58,522 nucleotides of DNA from Candidatus Levyibacteriota bacterium (GCA_029260965.1 JAJDCG010000002.1:1-58522), one strand, 5' to 3'. Positions 10,021-13,621 are shown, counted from the first letter of the stretch. The notes: generated from the sequence alone by a model not told the origin. Program-made: numbers and translations.

Positions 10021-10998
10021 ATGGCAGGTCAAAAACATCCAGAATATCAATATCTAGAGCTTTTGAAAGACATTCTCAAAAATGGCGTTGTAAATGTGGA
10101 TCGGGGGACTGGGGTCAAATCATACAGCGTTTTTGGCAGGCAGTCTAGGTATGATTTGTCTGAGAGCTTTCCTCTTCTTACCACCAAAAGAGTTTATTGG
10201 AATGGGGTCCTCAAAGAGCTTTATTGGTTCATGTCAGGGGATTCCAATATCAAATATCTAGTTGATAACAATGTTCATATCTGGGATGATTATCCCTACA
10301 AAATATATAGCAAAAAGCAAAAAGCAAAAAGCAAAAAGCTGACAAAAGAAGAGTTTATACAAAAAATCGCAAACGATAAAAAATTTGCCAAAAAGTGGGG
10401 CGAGTTGCCCAGAATTTATGGCGAGATGTGGAGGAGATGGCCGACTCGGAAAAAAGGCAAAACAGTTGATCAGCTAGGATGGTTGATCAAGGAGTTGCGT
10501 GATGATCCAGATGCCAGAAATGCGATAGTTAACAGCTGGAATCCTGAATATCTCTATACAATGGCTGATAAGAAAGATACATCTTATTTCCCAATTTGCC
10601 ACAATATGTATCAGGTAAGTGTCAAAGATGGTAAGTTATCATTGCACTTGTATCAGAGGAGTTGTGATATGTTTCTTGGCGTGCCGTTTAATATCGGCAG
10701 TTATTCGCTTTTGGCTGTGATTTTGGCAAAAATCTTGGGGTACAAGCCAGGTGAATTCATCCATACATATGGAGATGCACATATTTATGAAAATCACGTG
10801 GCACAAGTCAGGGAGCAGTTAAAGAGAAAGCCTCGTCCTTTTCCGAGGCTAAAACTTGGTAATTTTAAAAATCTTTCCGATTTCAGACCAGAGAAAGTTG
10901 AGCTAGTCGGCTACGAACCACACCCGACCATCAAGGCGGAGTTGACGGTCGCGGGGGGATATTTTGAAGGAAAGAAAAAATCAAAAAGTAAAAAATAA
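10021..10998 (+). CDS. thyA: Thymidylate synthase ThyA
   Basis: DRGTG, FPLLTTKR, catalytic PICH, YQRSCDMFLGVPFNI and GDAHIYENH. Confidence 0.98.
   Translation: MAGQKHPEYQYLELLKDILKNGVVNVDRGTGVKSYSVFGRQSRYDLSESFPLLTTKRVYWNGVLKELYWFMSGDSNIKYLVDNNVHIWDDYPYKIYSKKQKAKSKKLTKEEFIQKIANDKKFAKKWGELPRIYGEMWRRWPTRKKGKTVDQLGWLIKELRDDPDARNAIVNSWNPEYLYTMADKKDTSYFPICHNMYQVSVKDGKLSLHLYQRSCDMFLGVPFNIGSYSLLAVILAKILGYKPGEFIHTYGDAHIYENHVAQVREQLKRKPRPFPRLKLGNFKNLSDFRPEKVELVGYEPHPTIKAELTVAGGYFEGKKKSKSKK
10309..10339 (+). repeat. In-frame (AGCAAAA)x4 heptamer repeat inside thyA
   Basis: Four perfect copies plus AGC, encoding SKKQKAKSKK. Confidence 0.9.
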
Positions 10999-11070
10999 AA
11001 TCCCATTCTCCTCATTTTCAATTTTTAAAAAACGGAAAAAACATAAAAACAAAACATCCTAATTACCTCG

Positions 11071-11102
11071 CTATGTTTCCATGTATTGATACATGGAAAC
11101 AT
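11071..11102. promoter_or_regulatory. 32-bp palindromic operator-like element, copy 1, overlapping a sigma70 promoter
   Basis: CT-ATGTTTCCATGTAT-TG-ATACATGGAAACAT has perfect 14-bp arms. The central TTGATA (11086-11091) lies N17 from TAGGAT (11109-11114), which has a TG extension. Confidence 0.85.
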
Positions 11103-11136
11103 GTGTGGTAGGATGGTTTTATAGTTTAATTTTATT

Positions 11137-11526
11137 ATGGGAAAGCCGAGAGAAGAGGTCAAAAATAGAGAGTATTATAAAGATATACATTTTCTTTATG
11201 AAATTTTGGGCACACTCAAAGATGTTGATGAGGTAAAGCTTTTTATCAAAGATATGCTCACAACATCTGAGCTTCGTATGCTCAAAAGGCGTTGGCATAT
11301 AGCAAATTTGCTAGATGAGGGACATGATATGAGAAGTGTTGCTAGGAAGGCAAAAGCAAGTACCCAGACAGTTGCAAAAATAAAAAAGATTATAGAGGAA
11401 GGATATGGAGGTTTGAGATTGGCGATAAACAGGGTAGATGAGAGAATAAAAAAAGAACATAAAGAATATGTAAAATCAAAAACCCCAAGAGGAGGTTCAC
11501 TTTTTGTAAAAAACTGGTTTAAATAA
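11137..11526 (+). CDS. TrpR-like (YerC/YecD family) helix-turn-helix repressor
   Basis: FIKDMLTTSELRMLKRRWHIANLL followed by an HTH (MRSVARKAKASTQTVAKI) and GYGG, the YerC/YecD pattern. Confidence 0.88.
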   Translation: MGKPREEVKNREYYKDIHFLYEILGTLKDVDEVKLFIKDMLTTSELRMLKRRWHIANLLDEGHDMRSVARKAKASTQTVAKIKKIIEEGYGGLRLAINRVDERIKKEHKEYVKSKTPRGGSLFVKNWFK

Positions 11527-11559
11527 CTATGTTTCCATGTATTGATACATGGAAACATA
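11527..11559. repeat. 32-bp palindromic element, copy 2 (identical direct repeat), abutting the stop codon
   Basis: CTATGTTTCCATGTATTGATACATGGAAACAT, identical to 11071-11102. Confidence 0.95.
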
Positions 11560-11592
11560 AGGAGGGATTGTATGAGGGGTTTTGGATAATCA

Positions 11593-11743
11593 GGAATTAG
11601 GAACTTGGGATTAGGAACTTGGGATTGGGGATTCAGAATTAAGGATTTAAACTATGAATTAAGTACTAGATGCCGAGAAGATCAAGAAGATCAAAGAGAT
11701 GCAGGATATTAAAAATATTAGGTAAATTACTAAGAATAGTAGA
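11593..11743 (+). repeat. Mosaic of degenerate 7-mer then 9-mer tandem repeats upstream of folA
   Basis: GGAATTA GGAACTT GGGATTA GGAACTT GGGATTG GGGATTC AGAATTA..., then GCCGAGAAG ATCAAGAAG ATCAAAGAG ATGCAGGAT ATTAAAAAT ATTAGGTAA ATTACTAAG. Confidence 0.8.
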
Positions 11744-11765
11744 TAATAAAAATAGATTTGAATAT

Positions 11766-12263
11766 ATGAGTAATAAAAAAAGGATTTCAATAGTCGTGGC
11801 GATTGATGAGAAAAGGGGGATTGGGAAAAATAATGATCTTCTTTTTAAAATTCCTGAGGATTTTAAACGAATGAAGGAGCTGACTACTGATCATCCTGTT
11901 GTGATGGGGAGAAAAACTTTTGAGTCAATTGGACGAGTGTTGCCAGATCGCACGAATGTCATCATCACTCGTGATCCCAAATATAAAATATCTGGTGCAG
12001 TTGTGGTGGCCTCGCTTGAGGAGGGTCTGGAAATAGCCGAGAGAAGTGAGGGAGCGGATGAAATAATTGTCTTTGGTGGAGGGCAGATTTTCAAAGAAGC
12101 GCTTGATAAAGATCTGATTGATCGTTTGTACCTCACAATAGTTGAAGGGGATTATGGTGCTGATGTATTTTTTCCTGATTATTCGCAGTTTAATAAGGTG
12201 ATTGAAGAAGTTGATCGTGAAGCAGATGGATACAAGTACAAATTCCTGACACTTGAAAAATAA
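11766..12263 (+). CDS. folA: Dihydrofolate reductase
   Basis: IVVAIDEKRGIG, VVMGRKTFESIGRVLPDRTN, FGGGQI and LYLTIVEG. The extension to 11670 is translated repeat DNA. Confidence 0.96.
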   Translation: MSNKKRISIVVAIDEKRGIGKNNDLLFKIPEDFKRMKELTTDHPVVMGRKTFESIGRVLPDRTNVIITRDPKYKISGAVVVASLEEGLEIAERSEGADEIIVFGGGQIFKEALDKDLIDRLYLTIVEGDYGADVFFPDYSQFNKVIEEVDREADGYKYKFLTLEK

Positions 12264-12266
12264 AGG

Positions 12267-12295
12267 TTGCAAATGCGGGAAAAAGTTTGTATATT
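12267..12295 (+). promoter_or_regulatory. sigma70-type promoter of glyA (leaderless geometry)
   Basis: TTGCAA-N17-TATATT, ending 6 nt before GTG 12302. Confidence 0.7.
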
Positions 12296-12301
12296 AAGAA
12301 C

Positions 12302-13621
12302 GTGCAAAACCTCAAAAAAACAGATTCAGAGATTTATAACCTCATCAAACAGGAAGAGCAAAGACAAAAAGACGTACTTGAGATGATCCCATCGGAAAAC
12401 TACACTTCACAAGCTGTGATGGAAGCACTTGGTACTGTTTTGACCAATAAATACTCAGAGGGGTTTCCCAAAAAAAGATATTATCAGGGAAATGCAGTTG
12501 CAGATAGTGTTGAGATGCTTGCTCAAGAGAGAGCTCAGAAGCTTTTTGGTGTGCCGTATGCAAACGTGCAACCTTATTCAGGAAGTCCTGCCAATGCTGC
12601 TATTTACTTCGCGCTTTTGAAGCCTGGAGACAAGATAATGGGCATGTCGCTTTCTTTTGGCGGGCATCTGACACATGGAGCAAAACTCAATATGTCCAGC
12701 ACTTTTTATAAAGCAATTCCATATACGCTGGGGAAGGATGGTTTGCTTGATTATGACGCGATTGAGAAGCAGGCAGTGAAAGAAAAGCCTCAGATCATAG
12801 TGGCAGGGTTTACGGCATATCCCAGAAAAATCGATTTTAAAAGATTTGCGCAAATTGCAGAAAAGGTGGGTGCCTATCTGTTGGCTGATATATCACACAT
12901 CACAGGCTTGGTAGTTGCTGGAGAGCATGAGTCTCCTGTGAAATACGCTGATGTAGTGATGACAACAACTCATAAAACACTAAGGGGTCCAAGAGGTGCG
13001 ATGATAATGGTAACTGACAAGGGTTTGAAGCGTAATCCTGACATGCCTCTAGATATTGAACGGGCAATAATTCCTGGTCTTCAGGGAGGACCGCATGATA
13101 ATCAGACAGCAGCGATTGCTGTTTGTTTACTTGAAGCAAGCATGCCCTCATTCAAAAAATATGGAGCCCAGATTGTCAAAAACACTAAAGCTTTAGCCTC
13201 AGAGTTGACGCGTCTTGGTTTTGATCTTGTTAGTGGGGGATCTGATAACCACTTGATTTTGATTGATTTACGAAGCAAAAAAGTTAATGGCGCGCCAGCA
13301 GCACTCGCTCTTGAAATGGCAGGGATAGTTCTCAATAAAAACGGTGTGCCTTTTGATACAAATCCGCCTTTTTATCCCTCTGGAATACGACTTGGAACAC
13401 CTGCTATTACAACTCGAGGGATGAAAGAAAAAGATATGAAAAAAGTGGCAGACTGGATGGCGCGTGCAATTGATGAGGTGGCAGGTGAGGATCTGCCAAG
13501 TGACAAGGAAAAAAGACGCGAGATTTGGAAAAAGATGAAGAAAGAAATAATAGCCAACAAGAAATTGAAATTAATCGCAAAAGAAGTGAAGATGTTTTGT
13601 TCTAAATTCCCCGTGCCCTAG
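12302..13621 (+). CDS. glyA: Serine hydroxymethyltransferase
   Basis: SENYTS, NKYSEG, GGHLTHG, PLP-lysine motif TTTHKTLRGPRG and SGIRLGT. GTG 12302 is preferred over TTG 12287 because the latter overlaps the -10 box. Confidence 0.97.
   Translation: MQNLKKTDSEIYNLIKQEEQRQKDVLEMIPSENYTSQAVMEALGTVLTNKYSEGFPKKRYYQGNAVADSVEMLAQERAQKLFGVPYANVQPYSGSPANAAIYFALLKPGDKIMGMSLSFGGHLTHGAKLNMSSTFYKAIPYTLGKDGLLDYDAIEKQAVKEKPQIIVAGFTAYPRKIDFKRFAQIAEKVGAYLLADISHITGLVVAGEHESPVKYADVVMTTTHKTLRGPRGAMIMVTDKGLKRNPDMPLDIERAIIPGLQGGPHDNQTAAIAVCLLEASMPSFKKYGAQIVKNTKALASELTRLGFDLVSGGSDNHLILIDLRSKKVNGAPAALALEMAGIVLNKNGVPFDTNPPFYPSGIRLGTPAITTRGMKEKDMKKVADWMARAIDEVAGEDLPSDKEKRREIWKKMKKEIIANKKLKLIAKEVKMFCSKFPVP

Follow-up and report, generated by a model that had tools for sequence, protein, structure and literature searches.

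A TrpR/YerC-family regulator gene bracketed by two identical palindromes, very probably its operators, between thyA and folA of a Levybacteria-type bacterium

Introduction

In Bacillus subtilis, the TrpR-family protein YerC has been identified as the histidine repressor HisR, whose 20-bp palindromic operator (cacTTTAn6TAAAgtg) precedes his genes and genes for histidine transport (PMC9413887). The HisR motif of Proteobacteria reads TGTAnTArn4yTnTTACA, and for Ruminococcus gnavus the binding has been validated in vitro with histidine as the effector (PMC9413887). The YerC family is thus no longer uncharacterised, and the view that targets of YerC proteins are poorly defined, which accompanied the original prediction for the locus described here, is outdated (PMC9413887). 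In the literature we found neither a TrpR-like regulator of thyA or folA in Patescibacteria, nor the regulator or the motif presented below, nor a dedicated bacterial repressor for thyA, folA and glyA. To our knowledge, bacteria of the candidate phyla radiation possess very few transcription factors and almost none with a known site, target or signal. Pairs of cognate operators, in which the site at the promoter is accompanied by an auxiliary one hundreds of bp downstream, are known from lac (O1/O2), gal (OE/OI) and deo.

The DNA analysed here, in the following called the window, is a stretch of 58,522 nt from Candidatus Levyibacteriota bacterium (GCA_029260965.1 JAJDCG010000002.1:1-58522), a Levybacteria-type member of the candidate phyla radiation. 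Between its thyA and folA genes, a self-contained and autoregulated unit of operator, repressor and operator had been predicted, and this core claim holds with comparative support from 48 loci. The regulator belongs to a clade that passes the tests for the family but fails those for HisR, as motif, gene context and protein length all differ.

Results and Discussion

In the window the genes dcd, tmk, a second dcd-like gene (dcd2), thyA, the regulator gene, folA and glyA, assigned by Pfam, follow each other on the + strand (Table 1). The 32-bp unit CTATGTTTCCATGTATTGATACATGGAAACAT is present exactly twice in the 58.5 kb, as O1 and O2, with no occurrence expected by chance (100 shuffles). The first copy has 14-bp arms around a 2-nt centre and the second one 15-bp arms. 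The second copy begins with the base directly following the TAA stop codon (11524-11526) of the regulator ORF. The proposed bracketing of a TrpR/YerC-like gene by two identical palindromes was confirmed. Scored with a position weight matrix derived from 91 sites of related loci, both copies obtain 39.1 bits, whereas no position in the rest of the window reaches 3 bits and the best score in 30 shuffles of the window was 8.7. A chance origin of the repeat is ruled out by the shuffles and the matrix scores. The identity of the two copies ends 2 nt past the palindrome, so that the repeated unit is the site itself and not a duplicated segment. Both sites are identical across 28 bp in 4 of 43 loci, the window being among these four.

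Table 1: Coordinates of the features at the thyA-folA locus, counted from the first nucleotide of the window.
Feature	Position	Strand	Description
thyA	10021-10998	+	upstream neighbour of the regulator gene; confirmed by Pfam; part of the conserved cluster dcd-tmk-dcd2-thyA...folA-glyA
O1	11071-11102	.	32-bp palindromic unit CTATGTTTCCATGTATTGATACATGGAAACAT; 28-bp consensus site TGTTTCCATGTATTGATACATGGAAACA at 11074-11101
O1 invariant core	inside 11081-11094		GTATTGATAC
Predicted regulator promoter	11086-11114	+	-35 TTGATA, 17-nt spacer, extended -10 TGgTAGGAT
Regulator gene	11137-11526	+	129-aa TrpR-family (YerC/YecD-type) helix-turn-helix protein; Pfam, TIGRFAM, AF2/Foldseek
O2	11527-11558	.	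identical to O1; 28-bp site at 11530-11557; no -10 element after it
Spacer O2-folA	11559-11765	+	AAGGAGG, mini-ORF and tandem repeat; not conserved among relatives
AAGGAGG	11559-11565	+	directly 3' of O2
Mini-ORF MRGFG*	11572-11589	+	present in the window
14-bp tandem repeat	11596-11626		ATTAGGAACTTGGG, 2.2 copies, in the O2-folA spacer
folA	11766-12263	+	downstream, co-directional; confirmed by Pfam
glyA	12287-13621	+	downstream, co-directional; confirmed by Pfam

A strong SD sequence leading to a five-codon ORF had been pointed out behind the second palindrome. Both are present, but AAGGAGG is not rare in the window (7 occurrences versus 8.4 expected by chance), and neither this motif nor the mini-ORF is conserved in the relatives. 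The 14-bp tandem repeat and an imperfect 27-bp repeat (11734-11794), which spans the start of folA, were likewise found neither in relatives nor elsewhere in the window. Scanning the + strand of the O2-folA spacer predicted no promoter-like or terminator-like site, and tblastn of this spacer with Nudix, HIT, NDT-like, NlpC-like, Ham1, HAD and VUT proteins returned only noise. Thus, no remnant is detectable of the second cargo gene that was suggested to have decayed behind the second copy; relatives have HIT, Nudix or NDT-like genes where the window has the spacer. The whole thyA-folA interval (10999-11765 in the window) is a variable slot in the lineage (L016, L062-L066 and other loci), being occupied by Nudix, HIT, nucleoside 2-deoxyribosyltransferase-like, 23S_rRNA_IVP/bAvd-like, NlpC-like or VUT-family genes, or by nothing. 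The neighbouring thyA occurs as two divergent types among otherwise similar loci (window versus L016, L003, L005 and L006). Between L016 and the window thyA is 54% and glyA 80% identical, and the two types suggest a replacement or transfer of thyA within the cluster. Inside thyA of the window a run of the hexamer AAAAGC (10310-10340) encodes the lysine-rich insert KKQKAKSKK; slippage by hexamers would preserve the reading frame.

To compare the locus with its relatives we compiled loci from genome contigs, metagenome contigs and look-ups of the exact protein. The resulting collection contains 48 non-redundant loci with 47 readable O1 and 44 readable O2 sites, the few absent ones being located at contig ends. 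Every non-redundant locus with adequate flank possesses both sites, one upstream of the gene and one just after its stop codon, showing that the unit is conserved and self-contained. Among these loci, none with adequate flank carries the gene without the repeats. The 91 sites yielded the 28-bp consensus tTGTnnnnAyGTATyrATACrTnnnnACAa with a core GTAT-YR-ATAC that is 100% conserved, outer TGT/ACA elements that are conserved to 93-100%, and TGT elements lying 8 bp apart within each arm. Of the half-site geometry (T/C)ATG-N4-CATG given in the original prediction, the 8-bp periodicity therefore stands, while the motif across relatives is TGT-N5-TGT and not CATG. A matrix scan of 312 kb of related loci revealed only one extra site (L021:506). 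This third full-strength site (L021:499-533, 37 bits) is located between tmk and dcd2 with its right arm overlapping the ATG of dcd2, and it is the sole site away from a regulator gene in the 312 kb. Several MAGs with this Levybacteria-type cluster are labelled Gammaproteobacteria or Lysobacterales (L001, L003, L004, L006 and L010), which are probably binning or labelling errors.

Not all relatives carry the module. Via the folA protein of the window we found L061 (GCA_029260905.1), whose folA protein is 93% identical and whose flanking DNA is 72-88% identical to the window. In L061 thyA and folA are separated by an 89-nt spacer with neither regulator nor palindrome. Five more relatives (L062-L066) possess neither gene nor site, and in all six the best matrix score was <= -2.5 and tblastn gave no match. 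The thyA-folA intervals of L062-L066 are tight or hold other small genes, with thyA and folA even overlapping in L064. The short spacer of the closest relative and the overlapping genes of another one agree with the gene being an insert in the thyA-folA interval, as had been proposed. Gene and palindromes co-occur perfectly, and the module is accessory and patchily distributed; as the same gene cluster works in relatives without it, it is dispensable. The short spacer of L061 contains a TGgTATACT element, in contrast to the stretch from the regulator gene to folA in the window, for which a + strand promoter was not predicted. The thyA gene of L061 is split into two called ORFs of 104 and 198 aa (L061:3697-5911), pointing to a frameshift or an assembly error, and a 348-aa ORF without Pfam match is located between the dcd-like gene and thyA of this relative.

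The regulator matches the Trp_repressor family PF01371 with 48.6 bits (cut-off 27, E 8.5e-13, residues 16-99) and the yecD_yerC model TIGR02531 with 50.8 bits (cut-off 42.2), whereas its score of 19.6 bits stays below the cut-off of 67.25 for the TrpR equivalog TIGR01321. Its AF2 model (pLDDT 81) is all-helical with seven helices. The top Foldseek matches of this model were 3kor, 3frw, 3g1c and 1trr, each with a probability of 1.00, with the YerC/HisR structures 3kor, 3frw and 3g1c ranking first and E. coli TrpR after them; 3g1c, 3frw and 3kor are also the closest solved relatives by sequence. The recognition helix begins with S75-T76-Q77-T78, the segment K50-R51-R52-W53-H54 hardly varies, if at all, within the clade, and a C-terminal helix (92-115) together with a tail exceeds the HisR/TrpR proteins of ~100 aa. 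Homologues with 50-74% identity belong to Patescibacteria, mostly Levybacteria. A search of 1.84 billion representative proteins resulted in 1037 family members with a single other cluster at E <= 1e-30, so that the clade of the regulator is small and distinct. The anti-phage defence families of PADLOC gave no match. The distant homologue L056 (45% identity) has no C-terminal tail, no downstream site and only a weak upstream site without the outer TGT/ACA. The two-site design is thus confined to the clade of the regulator, and L056 as a single case fits the idea that the C-terminal tail goes with the longer operator. Where HisR has LSQRFE the regulator has LKRRWH, which suggests an anionic ligand, and such a basic segment in place of an acidic or neutral one would argue against histidine as corepressor. 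From the gene context and this basic segment, which is equivalent to the pocket, our guess for the effector would be an anionic nucleotide or a folate.

The strongest computational evidence for both palindromes being cognate operators is a covariation between protein and DNA. Residue 77, the third one of the recognition-helix start S-T-x-T, tracks the bases in the operator centre. With Q, N or S at this position a TA centre was found in none of 41 loci, the centres being TG, CG or CA. With T or A all five loci show the TA centre (GTATTAATAC), at all 8 sites and in both O1 and O2 wherever both are readable (three of the five). Fisher's test gave p = 7e-7 when kinship is ignored, and the five T/A loci are not mutual nearest relatives. 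Judged by this covariation, the palindromes are very probably the operators of the protein. The centre dinucleotide of O2 (11543-11544 in the window) is oriented, with TG in 24 and CA in 2 of 44 loci, and this orientation persists though O2 has no promoter geometry favouring TTGATA.

The -35 box TTGATA (11086-11091) of the predicted regulator promoter forms the centre of O1 and is followed by the extended -10 element at 11106-11114 (TG at 11106-11107, TAGGAT at 11109-11114). The corresponding geometry, a centre hexamer followed by 16-18 nt and TAnnnT, was observed for 31 of the 47 O1 sites (19 with TG) versus 5 of the 44 O2 sites (none with TG). Both parts of the earlier assignment, namely a first copy centred on a -35 box in the promoter of the gene and a second copy without matching -10, are therefore reflected in the relatives. 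The promoter overlap is not universal, as the -10 element at 17 nt is often missing in O1 loci with the centre hexamer TCGATA.

We propose that the regulator (129 aa) acts as a TrpR/YerC-type repressor with sequence-specific DNA binding and that the two palindromes are its operators. As O1 is centred on the -35 box, a dimer bound there should block RNA polymerase, and the gene would repress itself; at the level of sequence prediction it would qualify as autorepressed through a promoter-overlapping operator. This explanation as a whole, which comprises a repressor with its own operators, autorepression, an O2 bound to the module and control of folA-glyA, has in our estimate a probability of about 0.65. 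The data themselves show that the sites are real, that they go together with the gene and change in step with the recognition helix, and that a conserved promoter pattern overlaps O1; from these data we infer that the protein represses, what O2 does, that folA-glyA are controlled and which type of ligand is involved. Against it stands that a repressor needs targets, yet the visible sites in the 58.5 kb flank only its own gene. Further points against it are the dispensability of the module in relatives, the O1 loci without a -10 element at 17 nt, the O1-O2 spacings without a common helical phase, and the arm symmetry described below.

The position of O2 bears on its possible role. In most loci 18-57 nt separate it from the stop codon, and in L055 the distance is 111 nt. 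The next gene is mostly co-directional (folA in 19 loci, Nudix in 5, HIT in 3, and others). O2 is kept beside folA, Nudix, HIT, NDT-like, VUT and HAD genes and also beside NlpC-like and fmt genes in convergent orientation. Convergent next genes occur in L010, L012, L042, L055, L059 and L060, and in L055 O2 is even located beyond an intrinsic terminator. Since O2 is kept whatever the neighbour, it belongs to the module and not to a particular neighbour. In the subclade of L055, L059 and L060 the module follows rplJ-rplL(-rpmB) and faces a convergent operon with the likewise folate-dependent gene fmt; in L060 an acyltransferase gene comes directly next to the module.

O1 and O2 are 456 bp apart in the window; 17 loci have distances of 429-466 bp, and L055 has 592 bp. 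These spacings share no common helical phase, and loops of more than 400 bp are not very phase-sensitive. Like looping systems, the locus has two cognate operators in cis, here as predicted ones. Most likely O2 would strengthen repression together with O1 across ~430-590 bp by looping the regulator gene, and it may also, or instead, stop transcription leaving this gene as a roadblock; from the arrangement of the sites, looping and/or roadblock are its likely roles. An intrinsic terminator at O2 was rejected, as the + strand continues with AAGGAGGG without a U-tract and the relatives likewise have no T-run; a terminator was flagged on the - strand only, where no gene exists to terminate. O1 would control the transcript running through the regulator gene into folA-glyA. 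As the + strand from the regulator gene to folA contains neither a predicted promoter nor a predicted terminator, the module would control folA-glyA, and both genes (11766-13621) are candidate targets via read-through from the promoter of the regulator.

Alternatively, O2 could be the operator of the downstream gene, at which the bound repressor occludes an unrecognised promoter or acts as a roadblock without interacting with O1. Among the loci with an identifiable neighbour, roughly three quarters have a co-directional next gene, and with its start 43-183 nt behind the stop codon of the regulator there is hardly space for a further promoter. That neither a promoter nor a terminator was predicted on the + strand from O2 to folA in the window points in the same direction, and the third site across the start codon of dcd2 in L021 suggests that genes of the cluster can be direct targets. 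However, O2 is kept in the six loci with a convergent next gene and beyond the terminator in L055, and no -10 element follows at a fixed distance (5 of 44). We consider a role as downstream operator less likely than not. Where the downstream gene is co-directional, this role can be combined with autorepression and an O2 that belongs to the module.

The arms of the palindromes show a symmetry beyond the conserved bases. At the four non-conserved positions per arm the O2 arms are 77-91% complementary versus 37-53% with shuffled arms, and the O1 arms 53-68% versus 31-48%. At least 12 different symmetric 4-mers occur at these positions. Pair counting resulted in 64 cells changing on both sides versus 27 in shuffles, with none of 500 shuffles reaching the observed value. 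This complementarity is not explained by a simple base readout by a dimer. It could reflect a structural need, as a cruciform or hairpin, for the working or moving of a portable plug-in cassette, which would be exchanged among Patescibacteria into housekeeping operons, mostly into the thyA-folA slot, with the operators looped round their own gene and folA-glyA, Nudix and HIT genes made responsive to a nucleotide or folate signal. We consider such an extended scenario unlikely.

It would also be conceivable that the palindromes act in a folded state, be it as a 3' RNA hairpin or as a DNA cruciform or hairpin, and that their symmetry is selected instead of the duplex sequence. The covarying arm positions and a predicted O2 RNA hairpin of -18 kcal/mol (z = -3.6) would agree with this. 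But the non-Watson-Crick pairs show no sense-strand excess of G.U (11 G.U versus 21 A.C in O2), the core has an invariant sequence that a plain stem does not need, 27 of the 47 O1 sites combine arms of two types that are not complementary, and the + strand has no U-tract. These four points already make a sense-strand RNA hairpin unlikely. In addition, O1 is located upstream of the transcription start predicted at about 11121, and O2 of L055 beyond the terminator. Template-switch repair in quasi-palindromes could keep the arms alike without any selection and thus offers another source of their symmetry. We regard a function in the folded state as quite improbable. No Rfam family matched.

The unit had also been suggested to be mobile, which would mean a cassette that moves or excises through recombination at the flanking repeats. 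Its patchy distribution with the absence from the nearest relative, the occurrence of both sites in at least six different contexts, the varying order relative to Nudix, HIT and NDT-like genes, and pairwise regulator distances that correlate only weakly with the distances for thyA, folA and glyA (rho 0.13-0.25) would be in line with this. Yet the marks of an IS, a MITE or an integron-type cassette (recombinase, duplication, several copies, scar) were not found: there is no recombinase or transposase nearby, no target-site duplication (flanks CCTCG/CTATG and AACAT/AAGGA), and each locus has one gene copy with two sites. A compositional anomaly was not observed either, and no relative was detected in viral contigs (IMG/VR), where 20 single DNA-pattern matches are at about chance level by a rough estimate. 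Recombination between O1 and O2 would leave a single copy behind, and such an empty site was looked for between thyA and folA and found in none of the six gene-less relatives, which argues against a loss via this route and against the predicted excision between the direct repeats. A self-mobile cassette is therefore very unlikely. The junction between L016 and L062 fits an insertion or a microhomology (TAT) deletion alike, and the congruence of distances with thyA, folA and glyA is too weak to decide the direction of the indel. Homologous exchange through the conserved flanking genes is the simplest account of the patchiness.

Conclusion

In summary, the locus offers a complete package: the clade of the regulator, its sharply defined 28-bp operator, a promoter prediction, and residue 77 as a determinant of specificity from which the bound operator centre can be predicted. 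With it the TrpR/HisR family gains a third specificity class, and a regulator is placed among the genes of the thymidylate cycle (thyA, folA and glyA). The module is kept as a unit, yet it is present or absent between near-identical clusters, which makes it a natural experiment on the gain or loss of regulation in a streamlined genome.

Like the looping systems lac, gal and deo the module has two cognate operators, here predicted ones, of which one is located at the promoter and one downstream, but in our case the operator pair encloses the regulator gene itself and the helical phasing is not conserved. The trpR-trpBA operon of Chlamydia trachomatis resembles the arrangement predicted here in its autoregulated regulator as first gene, its intergenic operator and its co-directional biosynthetic genes; its intergenic operator belongs to another repressor, YtgR, whereas here both sites are the same palindrome (PMC7755916). 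E. coli TrpR shares the fold, with Foldseek probabilities of 0.9-1.0 for 1trr, 1tro and further structures, and is autoregulated via an operator overlapping its promoter, like the predicted O1. Both operators contain TGTA/TACA elements with an 8-bp step between the half-site elements. They differ in that the TGT inner pair is 4 bp and the outer pair 22 bp apart here, compared to 12 bp in TrpR, and the regulator fails the TrpR equivalog model and has no trp genes nearby.

HisR is related by the same Pfam and TIGRFAM family and by the best sequence and fold matches (3g1c, 3frw and 3kor). Both are small all-helical HTH proteins with a palindromic operator, here a very probable one, and HisR frequently regulates its own gene through an upstream site. 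In both, the recognition helix begins with S-T-x-T, and both have an Arg corresponding to R52. The tests for a functional HisR orthologue gave a different operator type and a different context: neither his genes nor genes for histidine transport turned up in the loci that we annotated, as judged by their gene tables and ORF lists. The operator is the 28-bp tTGTn4AyGTATyrATACrTn4ACAa instead of the 20-bp HisR palindrome, the basic LKRRWH replaces LSQRFE, and the protein has 129 aa with an extra C-terminal helix and tail instead of <100 aa. In contrast to HisR, the regulator described here is embedded in a dTMP/folate gene context and always has its second site after the stop codon.
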